A stretch of DNA of 64,000 nucleotides from Escherichia coli (GTDB lineage: Bacteria > Pseudomonadota > Gammaproteobacteria > Enterobacterales > Enterobacteriaceae). The position numbers and the translations under genes are program-made. Where the stretch lies: the NCBI RefSeq assembly GCF_048403405.1, contig NZ_CP183129.1. One strand, given 5' to 3'. Every line of letters begins with the position of its first letter. The stretch's first letter is position 1. The notes beneath the pieces are model-generated. The model ran no database searches. It saw only the letters and a list, made by a program, of their open reading frames with translations, and was not told where the DNA came from. Shown one piece after another: positions 2,999 to 59,629 of the stretch.

Positions 2999-3914
2999 GA
3001 ATCTTGACCTTTTTTGCTGTTATCGCCACTCCCTGCCGTGGAAGTCAGCTTAGAACAATGTACTCCCCCAGGACGGCGTTTTGAAGGTCTGCAGAATAAG
3101 ATTTTGCCAGAGGGGAAGACTCGATTGTGCTGTTAATAACTTAATAATGGCAAAATAATGAGGTGTATATGCTTAGTAATTAATGTTATGTAGTGAATTG
3201 TTCTGATTCTTAATTGTGAGCGTGGTTTTTTTATCTGTAAGATAATTGTTTGAAAATGCCTCGTTTAAGAATTCACTAATGAATCGTGATGATGATATTT
3301 CCGCATTACGGAGAGTTTAACAGCGTGATGATTTCCGAGGTGTCGTAATGGGTGCAAGGTGTGAAACTATTGTTAAGCGGGATTAATGTATGAGGATGAT
3401 GCTAATTAATTATTATTTAATATTCAAAAAGGTTTTGTTGTGCTTATTAATAATAGAAGATTACTTTGCCTAACATAACATAACTTTGCATCAGATAATT
3501 CGCAATGACCCTTATAAATAAAAGGTTTTTGGGGTAAAATGCTCGCATAAATGACGGATCCCTGCTCTTGATGCCGCCTCACCATTGCTGTTTGTACGTG
3601 TTCGCGTATGACCAGCGATGCTGCACGAGAGTGGAACAAGGACTCACATTTACATTTATACAAACACGCGCATGTCATAAATACAAAAGAGTGAGTAACT
3701 TAATAGATATGCGATTCCTGAAGATATATTCTGTGATCTACTTCAGGCATTATAACGGAACAATGTGAGTCGCTTTTTTAGTGCAACTCATATGCATTTT
3801 TACTTTCGTCCGGGTTCCGGATGAAACTGCCAGGGAGGCACATTACAAATGGAATTGCTTGTTTGTGTGTGCACAGCATTAACCAGCTCAGTATGAGCCG
3901 CCAGTAAGTGATAA

Positions 3915-4856
<942 letters not shown>

Positions 4857-10391: not shown

Positions 10392-13118
10392 ATGGCTACA
10401 ATTCATGTAGACGGCAAAGAATACGAGGTCAACGGAGCGGACAACTTGCTGGAAGCTTGTCTGTCTCTGGGCCTTGATATTCCTTACTTTTGCTGGCATC
10501 CGGCGCTGGGAAGCGTCGGTGCTTGCCGCCAGTGTGCGGTGAAGCAATACCAAAACGCGGAAGACACGCGTGGTCGCCTGGTGATGTCCTGTATGACACC
10601 GGCTTCCGATGGCACCTTTATTTCCATTGACGATGAAGAAGCGAAACAGTTCCGTGAAAGTGTGGTCGAGTGGTTAATGACCAACCACCCGCACGATTGT
10701 CCGGTATGTGAAGAAGGCGGTAACTGCCATCTTCAGGATATGACCGTGATGACCGGACACAGCTTCCGTCGCTACCGTTTCACCAAACGTACCCACCGTA
10801 ATCAGGATTTGGGGCCATTCATCTCTCACGAAATGAACCGCTGCATCGCCTGCTACCGCTGCGTGCGTTACTACAAAGATTACGCTGACGGCACGGACCT
10901 GGGCGTTTACGGTGCACACGACAACGTCTACTTCGGTCGCCCGGAAGACGGCACGCTGGAAAGCGAATTTTCCGGTAACCTGGTCGAAATTTGCCCGACC
11001 GGCGTATTTACCGACAAAACGCACTCCGAGCGTTACAACCGTAAATGGGATATGCAGTTTGCGCCGAGCATCTGCCAGCAATGTTCCATCGGCTGTAACA
11101 TCAGCCCCGGCGAGCGTTATGGCGAACTGCGTCGAATCGAAAACCGTTACAACGGTACAGTAAACCACTACTTCCTCTGCGACCGTGGTCGTTTCGGTTA
11201 CGGTTACGTCAACCTGAAAGATCGTCCGCGTCAGCCAGTACAGCGTCGTGGCGATGATTTCATTACCCTCAATGCCGAACAGGCAATGCAGGGCGCAGCA
11301 GATATTCTGCGTCAGTCGAAGAAAGTGATCGGCATCGGTTCTCCGCGTGCCAGCGTGGAAAGCAACTTTGCGCTGCGTGAGCTGGTGGGCGAAGAAAACT
11401 TCTACACCGGTATCGCTCACGGTGAGCAGGAACGTCTGCAACTGGCGCTGAAAGTGCTGCGTGAAGGCGGCATTTATACGCCGGCACTGCGCGAAATCGA
11501 ATCTTACGATGCGGTACTGGTGCTGGGCGAAGACGTTACCCAGACCGGTGCGCGCGTCGCGCTGGCAGTGCGTCAGGCGGTGAAAGGTAAAGCGCGCGAA
11601 ATGGCGGCAGCACAGAAAGTGGCTGACTGGCAGATTGCGGCAATCCTCAACATCGGTCAACGTGCGAAGCATCCGCTGTTTGTTACCAACGTTGATGATA
11701 CCCGTCTGGATGATATCGCGGCGTGGACTTACCGCGCACCGGTTGAAGATCAGGCGCGTTTAGGTTTTGCCATCGCCCATGCGCTGGATAACTCCGCGCC
11801 AGCGGTTGACGGAATCGAATCTGAGCTGCAAAGCAAAATCGACGTCATCGTGCAGGCTCTGGCGGGTGCGAAGAAACCGTTGATTATCTCCGGGACGAAC
11901 GCTGGTAGCGCTGAAGTGATTCAGGCTGCGGCTAACGTGGCGAAAGCCCTGAAAGGTCGCGGCGCTGACGTCGGTATCACCATGATTGCTCGCTCTGTAA
12001 ACAGTATGGGGCTGGGCATTATGGGCGGTGGATCACTTGAAGAAGCGTTAACCGAACTGGAAACCGGACGCGCCGACGCGGTGGTGGTGCTGGAAAACGA
12101 TCTGCATCGTCACGCTTCCGCTACCCGCGTGAATGCTGCGCTGGCGAAAGCGCCGCTGGTGATGGTGGTTGACCATCAACGCACGGCGATTATGGAAAAC
12201 GCCCATCTGGTGCTTTCTGCTGCCAGCTTTGCTGAAAGCGACGGTACGGTGATCAACAACGAAGGCCGCGCCCAACGTTTCTTCCAGGTTTACGATCCGG
12301 CCTATTACGACAGCAAAACTGTCATGCTGGAAAGCTGGCGCTGGTTACACTCGCTGCACAGCACCCTGCTGAGCCGTGAAGTGGACTGGACGCAGCTCGA
12401 CCATGTGATTGACGCTGTTGTGGCGAAAATCCCGGAGCTGGCAGGTATCAAAGATGCTGCGCCGGATGCGACATTCCGTATCCGTGGACAGAAACTGGCC
12501 CGTGAACCGCACCGTTACAGCGGTCGTACCGCCATGCGCGCCAATATCAGCGTTCATGAGCCGCGTCAGCCGCAGGATATTGACACCATGTTCACCTTCT
12601 CGATGGAAGGTAACAACCAGCCGACCGCGCACCGTTCGCAAGTGCCGTTTGCCTGGGCGCCAGGCTGGAACTCCCCGCAGGCGTGGAACAAATTCCAGGA
12701 CGAAGTTGGCGGCAAACTGCGCTTTGGCGATCCGGGCGTGCGTCTGTTTGAAACCAGCGAAAACGGTCTGGATTACTTCACCAGCGTACCGGCACGCTTC
12801 CAGCCACAGGACGGGAAATGGCGTATCGCGCCGTACTACCACCTGTTTGGCAGCGATGAATTGTCACAGCGAGCTCCGGTCTTCCAGAGCCGTATGCCAC
12901 AGCCATACATCAAACTTAACCCGGCGGATGCCGCGAAGTTGGGTGTGAACGCGGGCACTCGCGTCTCCTTTAGTTACGATGGCAACACGGTCACGCTGCC
13001 GGTTGAAATCGCCGAAGGGCTGACGGCAGGGCAGGTGGGCTTGCCGATGGGTATGTCCGGCATTGCTCCGGTGCTGGCTGGCGCGCATCTTGAGGATCTC
13101 AAGGAGGCACAACAATGA
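10392..13118 (+). CDS. nuoG: NADH:quinone oxidoreductase subunit G (Fe-S, molybdopterin-like fold)
   Basis: 908-aa from [13 protein letters not shown] (alternative in-frame ATG at 10386 gives 910 aa); N-terminal 2Fe-2S/4Fe-4S cysteine clusters. Confidence 0.96.
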
Positions 13119-48475: not shown

Positions 48476-48649
48476 TTAGTGGTTATTCGCTGCCAGATCG
48501 GCTTCGCTTAGCTGGGTGGCTGCGAGCACCAGGTCACGATCAATGCCCTGTTCCAGCATGCGCAAAGCAATTTTAATGGCTTGTTCATGCATGCCTTCCT
48601 GCCAGCCAATTTGGTGTCCTTCCTGCCGTAGCCGTTCAGCAATAGTCAT
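48476..48649 (-). CDS. ypaA: YpaA-like small ORF: stand-alone partial duplicate of the C-terminal tail of the adjacent Rpn-family gene
   Basis: Hand translation of the minus strand gives a 57-aa ORF ([57 protein letters not shown]), below the track's length cutoff; strong SD aaggagag 7 nt upstream; nucleotide-level direct repeat of the yfaD 3' end. Confidence 0.7.
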   Translation of the reverse strand: MTIAERLRQEGHQIGWQEGMHEQAIKIALRMLEQGIDRDLVLAATQLSEADLAANNH

Positions 48650-48661
48650 TAATCTCTCCTT

Positions 48662-49621
48662 TTAATGACCGTTCGGAATATCAGCATCAGTGAGTTGGGT
48701 TGTCGCCAGCACAATCTCACGTTCAAAGCCCTGTTCCAGCATGCGCAAGGCAATTTTAATGGCTTGTTCATGCATACCTTCTACTTTGCCTTTCTGCAAC
48801 CCCTCCAATTTCCCCTCCTGCCAACCTTCAATTTTACCTTCCTGCCAGCCAATTTGATGTCCTTCCTGCCGCAGCCGTTCAGCAATAGTCATTAATCTCT
48901 CCTTTTGTAGTGGTGAACGTTCGGCAATCTCCTCAATAAAACGGGTGAAACGGGAGGTATCGCCGCATTGCAGCAGGTAATTAAACAGCGTTTGTAGCTG
49001 GCTGTCATTAGTGAAGCCTCTAACCAAAAGCGTGGTGATCCTGTCGACCATACCGATTAAATCGCGGTCGCGAATATGCTTTTGAATCAGTTCCAGCAGA
49101 GCTATACGCCGATGTTGCATGATCTCATCGTCAGGTACGATGGTGATATCCACCAACGGAAAAGCTTCGGTGTACAACTGCCGGGCAAGTTGCGGATCGT
49201 CAAACTCATCCAGCCAGTTGAGTGAGTACGGGTAGGGCGAGGTTTCGCCATGATAAAACAGCAATGGCACCACCAGCGGAACTCTGTCATAGCCTTTATC
49301 CAGGTGACGCTGCATGGCGGCAGTGGCATAGCGCATTAGCCGAAAAGCCATATTCTTTTCTGCAGAGCTTTGATGTTCAATCACGCAGTAGATATAGCCT
49401 TCACCGTCGCTGGTTTCCACAGACCACAAAACATCCGAGTAGTAAGCGCGTAAACTTTTTTCAATAAAGCTGGTGGGTTCCAGGCGTAAAGTTTGCAGGT
49501 TGCAAAGCTTGCGCAGCGGCTCTGGTAGATGTATTTCCAGAAAATCCCGAGCGGTTTCGGGTGTGAACATAAAGGTTTTAAACACCGCATCATGCGGGGA
49601 GGAGGTTGTTGATTCGGTCAT
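48662..49621 (-). CDS. yfaD: Rpn-family recombination-promoting nuclease (PDDEXK / transposase_31-like) YfaD/RpnE
   Basis: 319-aa ORF; N-terminal PD-(D/E)xK-type region ([24 protein letters not shown]) and C-terminal GWQEGK(I/L)EG repeats. Confidence 0.88.
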
Positions 49622-56590: not shown

Positions 56591-57457
56591 TGCTATTGCA
56601 GGATGGCGTTCATGCGCCATCCTGTCTCACATCAAATTTTTCCAATCTCCACTAATTGTTCCGTGCACATTTGCAGTAAAAACAGTGGACTGCCTTCTAC
56701 CGGCTTTTCTTTAGCCAGCAACGAAATCTGTCGATAGAAGGTTGGTTCGAGAGGAACGGAACACAATTCATCTGCAATGGTTTTCAGCGTTAACTCTGGT
56801 AATAAGGCGATGCCTAATCCCTGTCGAATAAAACTGATCGCTGTATCCGGGTGATTAAATTCATATTTTATCTGTGGGGTAATATTCTTTTCTTTAAATA
56901 GTGCCATAATGCTTAATTCATAGCGTCCTTTACTAATAATTAATGGTTCACCCATTAACTCTTCCACTGTAATAGTGCTGTTTTTTGCCAGAGCATGGTT
57001 GGGCGGTAACACTACGGTGAATTTATCCTGATAAATGGGCACGGAGTACATTCCGCTCACCGGAAAATGAACAAAACCGGCATCAATGGATTCATTCTGA
57101 AGGGAATCAATAATCGCTGTGCTATTTTCCTCAAAAGGAATAATTTTTATATTCGGATGATGAATTTCAAAGTAGCGAATCACAGCCGGTAAGATACAGG
57201 CGCAGACGCTGGGGAAACAACCAAGTCTCAGCGTTCTTTGAGGGTTCTGCTTTTCCTGCTCGGCTATCTCTTTTACTGCGTTCACTTCCCGATTAATGGC
57301 GCGCAGATGATGCACAATGCGATGACCTGCTGCGGTCAGTTGTATAGCTTTACGGCGATCGCGTAACAGTATACTCACGCCAAGTTCTTGTTCGAGGGCA
57401 GCAATTGCCTGACTTACCGCCGACTGCGTCATGAACAATCGCTTGCTGGCTTCAGTA

Positions 57458-57466
57458 AAGCCACCG
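57458..57466. repeat. IS1 target-site duplication, copy 1 (AAGCCACCG)
   Basis: 9-bp direct repeat immediately abutting the IS1 end, identical to 58235..58243. Confidence 0.95.
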
Positions 57467-57481
57467 GGTAATGACTCCAAC

Positions 57482-57985
57482 TTATTGATAGTGTTTTATG
57501 TTCAGATAATGCCCGATGACTTTGTCATGCAGCTCCACCGATTTTGAGAACGACAGCGACTTCCGTCCCAGCCGTGCCAGGTGCTGCCTCAGATTCAGGT
57601 TATGCCGCTCAATTCGCTGCGTATATCGCTTGCTGATTACGTGCAGCTTTCCCTTCAGGCGGGATTCATACAGCGGCCAGCCATCCGTCATCCATATCAC
57701 CACGTCAAAGGGTGACAGCAGGCTCATAAGACGCCCCAGCGTCGCCATAGTGCGTTCACCGAATACGTGCGCAACAACCGTCTTCCGGAGCCTGTCATAC
57801 GCGTAAAACAGCCAGCGCTGGCGCGATTTAGCCCCGACGTATCCCCACTGTTCGTCCATTTCCGCGCAGACGATGACGTCACTGCCCGGCTGTATGCGCG
57901 AGGTTACCGACTGCGGCCTGAGTTTTTTAAATGGCGGAAAATCGTGTTGAGGCCAACGCCCATAATGCGGGCGGTTGCCCGGCAT
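57482..57985 (-). CDS. insB: IS1 transposase InsB (expressed as InsAB' fusion by -1 frameshift)
   Basis: 167-aa ORF matching InsB; overlaps insA; A6C slippery motif (minus-strand ttaaaaaac, plus 57922..57928) lies inside the overlap. Confidence 0.95.
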
Positions 57986-58179
57986 CCAACGCCATTCATG
58001 GCCATATCAATGATTTTCTGGTGCGTACCGGGTTGAGAAGCGGTGTAAGTGAACTGCAGTTGCCATGTTTTACGGCAGTGAGAGCAGAGATAGCGCTGAT
58101 GTCCGGCGGTGCTTTTGCCGTTACGCACCACCCCGTCAGTAGCTGAACAGGAGGGACAGCTGATAGAAACAGAAGCCAC
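57904..58179 (-). CDS. insA: IS1 protein InsA (zinc-finger/HTH regulator)
   Basis: 91-aa ORF with CPSC...CSHC zinc-finger cysteines. Confidence 0.95.
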
Positions 58180-58234
58180 TGGAGCACCTCAAAAACACCA
58201 TCATACACTAAATCAGTAAGTTGGCAGCATCACC

Positions 58235-58243
58235 AAGCCACCG
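58235..58243. repeat. IS1 target-site duplication, copy 2 (AAGCCACCG)
   Basis: 9-bp direct repeat immediately abutting the other IS1 end, identical to 57458..57466. Confidence 0.95.
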
Positions 58244-58438
58244 TAATCCAGCACGGCGAGTAAAGAATTTATTTGAGTAAGAGTCATTAGAGTTTGCTAA
58301 TCAATAATATTAAAACGATTAATTTCTCTAATAGCGTGCCGCCATTTATACTTCTGTTCTGCAAAGTACATCACAATTTGACGCAACCGCAGTAACGGGA
58401 GTGTTGTCTGCGTGCGTCATCCTGACAGGCGGTAGGGT

Positions 58439-59629
58439 ATGAAAGAGAAGTTATGGACGAAGGATTTTTGGGCAATAACCATCATCAGCTTTATTATTTT
58501 CTTCGTCTTTTATGTTTTACTAACATTGTTGCCAATTTATATCTCAGACCGCTTGCATGCCTCTCCTGATAAAGCAGGTTTGTTGGTGACTTTATTTTTA
58601 ATTGCCGCCATTGTTATTCGCCCCTTTGCCGGGCAATGGGTAGGTAAATATTCGAATAAAACTATTCTGGGGCTCTCTTCTCTGGCCTTTTTGGTGGTCA
58701 CTGCGCTGTATCCTTTTTGCCACTCAATTGAATCACTGCTTTTTATTCGGGTGCTTCATGGTATTACCTTCGGGGTTATCACTACGGTAAAAGGAACGAT
58801 TTCCGCGCGGCTGATCCCGGCCTCCCGACGTGGGGAGGGCATCAGTTTTTTCTCTCTGGCAATGGGGCTGGCAATGGTGGTCGGGCCGTGGATTGGTCTG
58901 AATATGGCGCGCTGGGAAGCCTTTAATCTGGCTTTCTGGCTATGCACCGGCGTGGCAGCGGTGGGGATTATTCTGTCGCTGATTATGACAGTGCCGCCGG
59001 TTATCAGCCATGCTGATGGTTCAACGCCGAAAATGGGCTTCGCCGCCATGTTCGATCGCGCGGCGTTGCCATTTGCGATGGTCACCTTTTTTATGACCTT
59101 TTCGTATGCCGGGGTTTCTGCTTTTCTGGCGCTTTATGCACGCGAACTTAACCTGATGTCGGCAGCCAGTAATTTCCTGCTTTGCTACGCTATCTTCCTG
59201 ATGATCTGCCGTACCTTTACCGGCAATGTCTGCGACAAAAAAGGACCGAAATATGTGGTTTACCCTTGCCTTGTGTTCTTTACGGTAGGACTGGTGGTTC
59301 TCGGCTACACCCAGGGAAGCATAATGATGGTTGTTTCTGGCGCATTGATTGGTATCGGGTATGGTTCCGTGACGCCAGTTTTTCAGACGCAGATTATCAG
59401 TTCAGTGGAACCGCATAAAATCGGTGTCGCAAACTCCCTCTTCTTCAATGCGATGGATGCAGGCCTGGCGCTGGGAGCCTGTGTGATGGGGATGATGGTT
59501 GCACATACTGGCTACCGAATGATTTATCTGCTGGGTGCACTATTAGTGGTAGTGGCTGGTGGAGTCTATGCGCTGCAAATGAAGGGTAAAAGCGGTGTTG
59601 CGCTAGTAGTGGCAAAAGAAATTCATTAA
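58439..59629 (+). CDS. Uncharacterised MFS-family transporter, divergent from the LysR regulator gene
   Basis: 396-aa ORF with about 12 predicted hydrophobic helices; no specific family recognised; I do not recall this gene at the equivalent K-12 position. Confidence 0.8.
   Translation: MKEKLWTKDFWAITIISFIIFFVFYVLLTLLPIYISDRLHASPDKAGLLVTLFLIAAIVIRPFAGQWVGKYSNKTILGLSSLAFLVVTALYPFCHSIESLLFIRVLHGITFGVITTVKGTISARLIPASRRGEGISFFSLAMGLAMVVGPWIGLNMARWEAFNLAFWLCTGVAAVGIILSLIMTVPPVISHADGSTPKMGFAAMFDRAALPFAMVTFFMTFSYAGVSAFLALYARELNLMSAASNFLLCYAIFLMICRTFTGNVCDKKGPKYVVYPCLVFFTVGLVVLGYTQGSIMMVVSGALIGIGYGSVTPVFQTQIISSVEPHKIGVANSLFFNAMDAGLALGACVMGMMVAHTGYRMIYLLGALLVVVAGGVYALQMKGKSGVALVVAKEIH

Follow-up and report, generated by a model that had tools for sequence, protein, structure and literature searches.

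The window, by which we mean the whole 64,000-nucleotide stretch of Escherichia coli DNA that was analyzed (contig NZ_CP183129.1), carries, from left to right, glpA, glpT, glpQ, a LysR-type regulator gene that is interrupted by an IS1 element, an MFS transporter gene, inaA, yfaE, and nrdB. The regulator gene reads leftward, as do yfaE and nrdB, and the transporter gene reads rightward. The interruption leaves the regulator gene as two minus-strand fragments. The 5′ fragment (58235..58287), with the ATG at 58287, consists of codons 1–17 plus 2 nt, and the 3′ fragment (56632..57466) begins with the third base of codon 15 and ends with codon 292 and the stop; codons 16 and 17 are thus present in both fragments, owing to the target duplication described below. 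Between the LysR start and that of the MFS gene lies a divergent control region of 151 bp (58288..58438), which is intact. The MFS gene itself (58439..59629, plus strand) is likewise intact, codes for 396 amino acids, and is the presumed target of the LysR regulator.

The IS1 element is complete and occupies positions 57467..58234 on the minus strand, exactly 768 bp by a script check of the window sequence, and no other copy of IS1 is present within the window. Its terminal inverted repeats, GGTAATGACTCCAACTTATTGAT and GGTGATGCTGCCAACTTACTGAT, are imperfect and match at 18 of 23 positions. IRR (57467..57489, minus strand) adjoins the 3′ part of the LysR gene, and IRL (58212..58234, minus strand), on the insA and promoter side of the element, faces the LysR start and the MFS gene. 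The 91 amino acid product of insA (57904..58179, minus strand) is the zinc-finger/HTH repressor and the N-terminal part of the transposase; the insB′ frame (57482..57985, minus strand; 167 amino acids) is expressed solely as the InsAB′ fusion. A −1 shift at the programmed frameshift site AAAAAAC (A6C; 57922..57928 on the minus strand, element position 307) yields the 232 amino acid InsAB′ transposase, and RefSeq annotates a "programmed frameshift" at the same IS1 CDS. In a profile search, both products matched NCBIfam NF033558 (transpos_IS1), InsB′ with 143.8 bits against a cut-off of 100, and InsA with 90 bits, covering profile positions 1–81. All sequence features are intact, and this copy may be able to transpose.

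Published IS1 is 768 bp long, generates an 8- or 9-bp duplication, and has an A6C frameshift site and a weak promoter that overlaps IRL (PMC12428005). The copy in the window has the same length, imperfect repeats beginning GGT, insA and insB′, the A6C site, and a target duplication within the 8–9 bp range; it is a standard, ordinary copy, with nothing unusual in the element itself. It is 100% identical to many E. coli chromosomal and plasmid copies labeled "IS1-like element IS1B family transposase". The nearest K-12 copies, IS1B and IS1C, are 2 nt apart from it, and the K-12 IS1A/IS1E "consensus" is 7 nt apart; the two changes specific to K-12 IS1B/C that the window copy lacks are one that is synonymous in insA and one that exchanges L for Q near the InsB′ C-terminus. 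An identical element has also inserted, independently, 290 bp away in another lineage, represented by strain UID2309220009.

Directly abutting the two ends of the element are identical 9-bp copies of AAGCCACCG, the left one at 57458..57466 and the right one at 58235..58243; the probability that 9 bp would match by chance at a fixed position is ~4e-6. Joining 58287..58244 to 57466..56632, i.e., removing IS1 together with one copy of the repeat, gives 879 nt, equal to 292 codons plus a stop, and the rejoined ORF contains no internal stop. The larger reconstruction made from the window in the same way, 25,757 bp in length, is 100% identical, without gaps, to the sequence of E. coli strain MB31, where the empty site has a single copy of the repeat, and it differs by one SNP from TUM14771 and by two SNPs from GN02461. 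The restored 292 amino acid ORF is identical at the DNA level to the intact MB31 gene (WP_001445880.1). Because the reconstruction equals MB31 and the restored ORF equals the MB31 allele, it is established that IS1 transposed cleanly and duplicated 9 bp of its target. The first-pass annotation had described a 768-bp element with both ends and both ORFs intact, a perfect 9-bp target duplication, and a clean 292-codon ORF on rejoining the flanks, all of which agree with the analysis, the rejoined ORF being the one found in the sister strains. That IS1 was misplaced here by repeat collapse during assembly would be conceivable for a multi-copy element found at about 5–10 places per chromosome in the four strains known to carry this insertion, but four complete genomes, each sequenced independently, have the same junctions, the 9-bp duplication is perfect on both sides of the element, and taking IS1 out restores a known allele exactly, such that this possibility can be virtually dismissed.

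The reconstructed 292 amino acid protein has the two domains of a LysR-type regulator, PF00126 HTH_1 at residues 3–63 (E = 6.4e-18) and PF03466 LysR_substrate at residues 88–267 (E = 1.4e-36). IS1 entered after codon 17 plus 2 nt, between LDYGG and FTEASKRLFMTQSAVSQAI, immediately before the HTH helices proper; a split after codon 17 within the DNA-binding domain, as read earlier from the DNA letters, is thus correct. The 3′ fragment holds the remainder of HTH_1 and the entire LysR_substrate domain. None of the named LysR subfamilies among the NCBIfam models (GltC, CidR, AlsR, CynR, CysB, and others) was reached, with scores of 70–130 bits against cut-offs of 250–600; the best full-length matches, all far under their curated cut-offs, were GltC, CidR, AlsR, CynR, HcaR, and CysB. 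The sole NCBIfam model that the reconstructed protein passes is NF007272/PRK09729, the 68 amino acid model of the YfaH "hypothetical protein", which residues 226–292 match with 143.8 bits against a cut-off of 139. Because these residues pass the PRK09729 cut-off, the interrupted gene is taken to be yfaH, a pseudogene in K-12, in its full-length form. Gene and position, between glpQ and inaA, are the same in both, but the two loci have decayed differently: K-12 derivatives retain a 243-bp LysR 3′ stub (yfaH) and a 105-bp MFS 3′ stub, an internal deletion having taken the greater part of the two genes together with the control region, whereas in the window both genes are complete and the regulator is split by IS1. 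A literature search on yfaH returned nothing on the function of this gene.

The distribution of the two states of the site was determined among 5,426 complete E. coli genomes. With a 300-bp reconstructed query that had to be covered over at least 80%, the uninterrupted site was found in 1,116 genomes; this is the empty-site search that the first-pass annotation had proposed. The occupied site, counted by requiring that the 300-bp left junction be matched in full as a single uninterrupted match, was found in four: strain 4621 (blood, Houston), MS 69-1 (colon, USA), TUM1226 (Japan), and isolate 68/OX030728 (Spain). These differ from the window by 0–4 SNPs over 25.8 kb, and their IS1 copies are all identical, from which it follows that the four are one clone. 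The last 26.7 kb of the window is identical to both MS 69-1 and TUM1226, and the first 38 kb differs from MS 69-1 by three SNPs and one indel. A 25-kb flank search found three insertion-free sisters of the same clone, namely MB31 (poultry, Cuba), TUM14771 (human feces, Japan), and GN02461 (human blood, USA). These data show a single insertion event in one E. coli clone: a sub-lineage acquired the element, and its descendants have kept it. The transposition had been judged relatively recent and unrearranged, and on an evolutionary scale that description is apt, as near-identical sisters have the site empty; the insertion is recent, yet it is older than the spread of the sub-lineage over three continents. 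Having arisen before that spread, it is not restricted to a single isolate but shared by four, which come from three continents. A literature search on MS 69-1 gave the provenance of the strain and nothing further.

Strains 7/2, MLI106K2, CRE389, and UID2309220007 were also considered as sisters for dating, each being 100% identical over the 300-bp query, but they are ~1.4% different over a 20-kb flank and were left out because they belong to another lineage. A larger protein collection has the exact LysR protein in intact form on 510 contigs and a 285 amino acid form fused to the IS1 end on 15. Since assemblies from short reads are usually broken at IS copies, the latter figure is probably too low.

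Reading from the native LysR start now leads into IS1 and gives a stub of 24 residues, MTLTQINSLLAVLDYGG followed by LVMLPTY, the latter derived from the end of IS1. The LysR promoter and ATG would accordingly be spent on this stub, and the remaining 275 codons would be left with no promoter, ribosome-binding site, or start codon, the winged HTH having also lost its first helix; for these reasons, the allele is most probably null. We considered whether an N-terminally truncated regulator might nevertheless be made from IS1 read-through transcripts and retain function. The frame is open from inside IRR down to the native stop (282–285 amino acids), with TTG at 57480 and ATC at 57489 as the alternative starts, and the TTG lies 1 nt past the insB′ stop codon, a position from which re-initiation is conceivable. 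PGAP/RefSeq indeed calls a 285 amino acid protein, WP_071587557.1, as an intact CDS starting inside IS1 in all four occupied genomes; the exact 282 amino acid TTG-start remnant is absent from the protein collection, in which the 285 amino acid PGAP form alone is present. However, this ORF would arise simply as an artefact of a frame that happens to remain open across 14–23 nt of IS1. The IS1 end shows no recognizable Shine–Dalgarno sequence, a TTG or an ATC would have to serve as the start codon, and translation would take place downstream of an ORF that needs a rare frameshift and is transcribed from an extremely weak, InsA-repressed promoter (PMC12428005). Moreover, the product would lack residues 1–14 and with them the first HTH_1 helix, and its DNA-binding domain would be expected to be destabilized. 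A functional truncated regulator is thus highly improbable, and, because its start lies just past the insB′ stop and residues 1–14 are missing, WP_071587557.1 is regarded as an annotation artefact.

Given a null allele, the effect on the transporter depends on how the regulator acted. The link between the two genes is presumed from their divergent arrangement and from a candidate LysR box in the control region, the T-N11-A dyad ATTAAAACGATTAAT at 58309–58323; such short AT-rich dyads are common. The control region is identical in strain 7/2 and has two substitutions, all outside the box, in O157:H7 and in UID2309220009. The MFS protein itself aligns over residues 10–379 to PRK05122 "MFS transporter" (best hit, 109.6 bits, cut-off 374) and to many other MFS models, and among the NCBIfam models no curated cut-off for a specific MFS subfamily was reached. 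Among proteins of solved structure, the efflux pump NorA comes closest, with a resemblance confined to the N-terminal half (E = 6.5e-13), which suggests a distant relationship to efflux-type MFS proteins. GltC, CidR, AlsR, CynR, and HcaR are activators with adjacent genes as targets, and CysB is an activator as well. Since these best-matching LysR families are activators, loss of induction would, by analogy, be likelier than de-repression. With the MFS gene and its whole control region intact, the transporter would lose LysR control and gain no IS1 promoter, and the most probable outcome would be a transporter locked at a basal, non-inducible level. We favor this over de-repression, albeit with only modest assurance.

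The interpretation given in the first-pass annotation, that the insertion probably deregulates the transporter or places it under outward transcription from IS1, can be accepted in its first part, as the loss of the regulator is well founded, but the part assigned to IS1 transcription is unsupported. Both insA and insB′ run the same way as the LysR gene and are read away from the MFS gene. A scan of 57300–58600 for promoters and terminators, in which the total number of hits was no higher than the shuffled expectation and which is therefore weak evidence either way, found no outward promoter toward the MFS gene at the IS1 end; the only plus-strand promoter-like site in that interval, 58469–58497, is inside the MFS coding region. 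The promoter-like site CTGCCA-16-TATGAT (58227..58200, minus strand) is IS1's own and lies where the weak IS1 promoter overlaps IRL (PMC12428005). The orientation of the element, the scan, and the untouched 151-bp native control region together leave the idea of IS1-driven MFS expression unsupported.

The most specific form of such activation would be an outward promoter, or a hybrid one with its −35 in IS1 and its −10 in the flank, at IRL. IS1 is reported to activate genes through fusion promoters (PMC12428005), and the IRL end does contain TTGGCA at 58221–58226 on the plus strand, a 5/6 match to the −35 hexamer. The arrangement is also that of the fusion promoters and of bgl activation by IS1 (PMC12428005), in that IS1 is upstream of the gene with its IRL end facing it. 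Unlike those cases, the window has no usable −10 at the right distance: the positions available with spacers of 16–18 nt read GTAATC, TAATCC, and AATCCA, none of which resembles TATAAT. The 204 bp from the IS1 end to the MFS start codon also include the complete native control region, and the native promoter region thus lies intact between the IS and the gene. Taken with the direction of insA and insB′ transcription and the lack of a plus-strand promoter-like site at the IS1 end in the scan, this makes IS1-driven MFS expression very unlikely.

Transcription in the inward direction is a separate matter. Because IS1 and the LysR gene share an orientation, transcription from the LysR promoter would enter IS1 at IRL and read into insA and insAB′. 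LysR proteins usually autorepress, and if this regulator does so the promoter may now be de-repressed. In recent work, read-through from upstream is reported to raise insAB′ transcription and transposition (PMC12428005); according to its title, a 1983 study cited in the same source found that transcriptional read-through from the flanks represses IS1 cointegration.

Judged from its distribution, the LysR gene is accessory and non-essential, and the LysR-MFS module appears to be dispensable. The pair is covered over at least 80% in 1,219 of the 5,426 complete E. coli genomes (~22%). Genomes of the CFT073 type match 17% of the LysR-MFS query, and under that match glpQ and inaA alone are annotated. 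In the different lineage of UID2309220009, the independent insertion is of the identical IS1 isoform in the same orientation, but it is in codons 29–32 of the MFS gene and is flanked by a 9-bp duplication of its own, CATTGTTGC, at the equivalent of window positions 58524–58532. In strain ES11, ISKox3 is annotated within the MFS gene.

Relaxed selection acting on a dispensable module would account for these repeated losses better than would selection for regulatory change. An alternative to neutral decay is that the insertion was positively selected, regulator loss being of advantage to a human-associated sub-lineage, for example by altering efflux. Carriers have been obtained from blood, colon, and a hospital on three continents, inactivation of the locus has occurred more than once and in different ways, and the MFS protein resembles efflux pumps. 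However, relaxed selection equally predicts repeated loss, and the other IS insertions are in the transporter gene rather than in the regulator, as would better suit dispensability of the whole module. The empty-site sisters of the same clone include human blood and human fecal isolates, and the numbers of contigs carrying the intact and disrupted proteins (510 vs. 15) also speak against an advantage. We consider positive selection unlikely. An adaptive knock-out in a fuller form, in which expression of a NorA-like exporter is shifted, tolerance to a drug or a gut metabolite is altered, and read-through, de-repressed if the regulator autorepresses, raises the level of IS1 transposase, would be less probable still.

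Overall, the locus is very probably the product of a simple transposition of a standard IS1 into codons 15–18 of an accessory LysR gene, the full-length yfaH between glpQ and inaA, with a probable null allele and, more likely than de-repression, loss of induction as the outcome. Since near-identical sisters keep the intact gene, this is a textbook insertional knock-out with nothing new in its making; it is ordinary biology, already known, and the insertion is both present and annotated in public genomes. The locus does reveal the origin of the K-12 pseudogene yfaH, and it allows one accessory module to be seen decaying through deletion and through several independent IS hits. It also provides a natural near-isogenic set for studying the LysR-MFS pair, with MB31, TUM14771, and GN02461 as intact members and, as disrupted partners in public collections, MS 69-1, TUM1226, 4621, and isolate 68. 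An annotation correction is also in order: WP_071587557.1, the first residues of which are encoded by the IS1 end, merits a pseudogene flag.

The nearest familiar parallels are the insertions of IS1 or IS5 in mgrB, marR, or acrR, which change resistance phenotypes. As in those cases, the element in the window has struck a small regulator gene beside its presumed target and would abolish regulation, and the MFS target resembles efflux pumps. The difference is in the expected sign of the effect, as the regulator in the window is likelier to be an activator, and its knock-out would then probably silence the target rather than de-repress it.

MS 69-1 and TUM1226, two of the four genomes that carry the IS1 junction, each match the final 26.7 kb of the window without a single difference. 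Over window positions 1-38091, comparison with MS 69-1 (locus L017) revealed three SNPs, at window positions 11820, 21037, and 24385, together with one indel of 1 bp at 20553, in the nuoN-yfbM interval. The window is therefore of the same clone as MS 69-1, though not identical to its CP146675 assembly. The deubiquitinase gene elaD (window ~22543-23766, minus strand) is frameshifted according to the MS 69-1 annotation, and its region in the window contains a 405 amino acid ORF with a TTG start at 22567-23784. A gene annotated rpnE or "ISNCY family transposase" (WP_000140596.1; window ~48476-49621, minus strand) lies between yfaU and glpC, with a partial Rpn/YhgA-type HTH protein annotated on an adjoining 186-bp fragment. 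Isolate 68 (OX030728), which is among the four occupied genomes, has a glpT gene annotated as frameshifted (L006 16836-18193); the frameshift may be genuine or may stem from a sequencing error in that assembly.

The interrupted LysR gene leaves a 3' remnant that RefSeq/PGAP calls as an intact CDS of 285 amino acids, WP_071587557.1 (minus strand, window 56632-57489; 3316-4173 in comparison locus L001), and in none of the four occupied genomes does this RefSeq/PGAP entry carry a pseudogene flag. The right end of IS1 supplies the codons for the first residues (M-NKLESLP) of this CDS, whose start is a non-canonical ATC. The exact protein is carried by 15 contigs in a large protein collection.

The LysR-MFS locus itself differs between lineages. 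K-12-type genomes retain only a 243-bp 3' stub of the LysR gene (yfaH) and a 105-bp 3' stub of the MFS gene (L016 1717-2058, from the K-12 derivative NEB Turbo), and nothing more of the pair, which implies that a single internal deletion removed the control region and, on either side of it, the 5' part of each divergent gene. CFT073-type genomes match over only 17% of the query, with glpQ and inaA alone under the match. In O157:H7 and several other lineages, glpQ and the LysR gene are separated by an extra insert of ~1.7 kb. It encodes a 356 amino acid "hypothetical protein", WP_001301786.1 (L015 699-1769, from E. coli O157:H7 Z887), which is absent from the lineage of the window.

Insertion sequences have entered this locus elsewhere. 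In UID2309220009, which belongs to a different lineage, the neighbouring MFS gene is interrupted at codons 29-32 by an IS1 (L003 3440-4207). The site corresponds to window positions 58524-58532, just 290 bp away from the window's own insertion, in a surrounding stretch of ~35% G+C. The IS1 there is the same isoform as the window IS1, with 100% identity, and has the same orientation; it is flanked by its own 9-bp duplication, CATTGTTGC, and arose independently of the insertion studied. The annotation of ES11 (search match H76, NZ_CM184321.1 2924879-2928903), with the transposase of the ISL3-family ISKox3 under the match and "MFS transporter" listed twice, suggests a third independent IS disruption.

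The window IS1 (57467-58234), evidently a mobile isoform, was compared with K-12 IS1A, IS1B, and IS1C (L018 and L019). K-12 IS1B/C show nine differences from the IS1A "consensus"; the window element has seven of them, including the L81F change that gives InsA F81. Only two IS1B/C-specific changes are missing, one synonymous in insA and the other an L-to-Q substitution near the InsB' C-terminus. K-12 IS1B/C have been reported as nearly inactive, and L81F in InsA was suggested as a possible limit on activity (PMC12428005). As a mobile isoform has F81 and lacks the two IS1B/C changes, it may be speculated that those two changes, or genomic context, weigh more heavily than L81F in the near-inactivity of K-12 IS1B/C.
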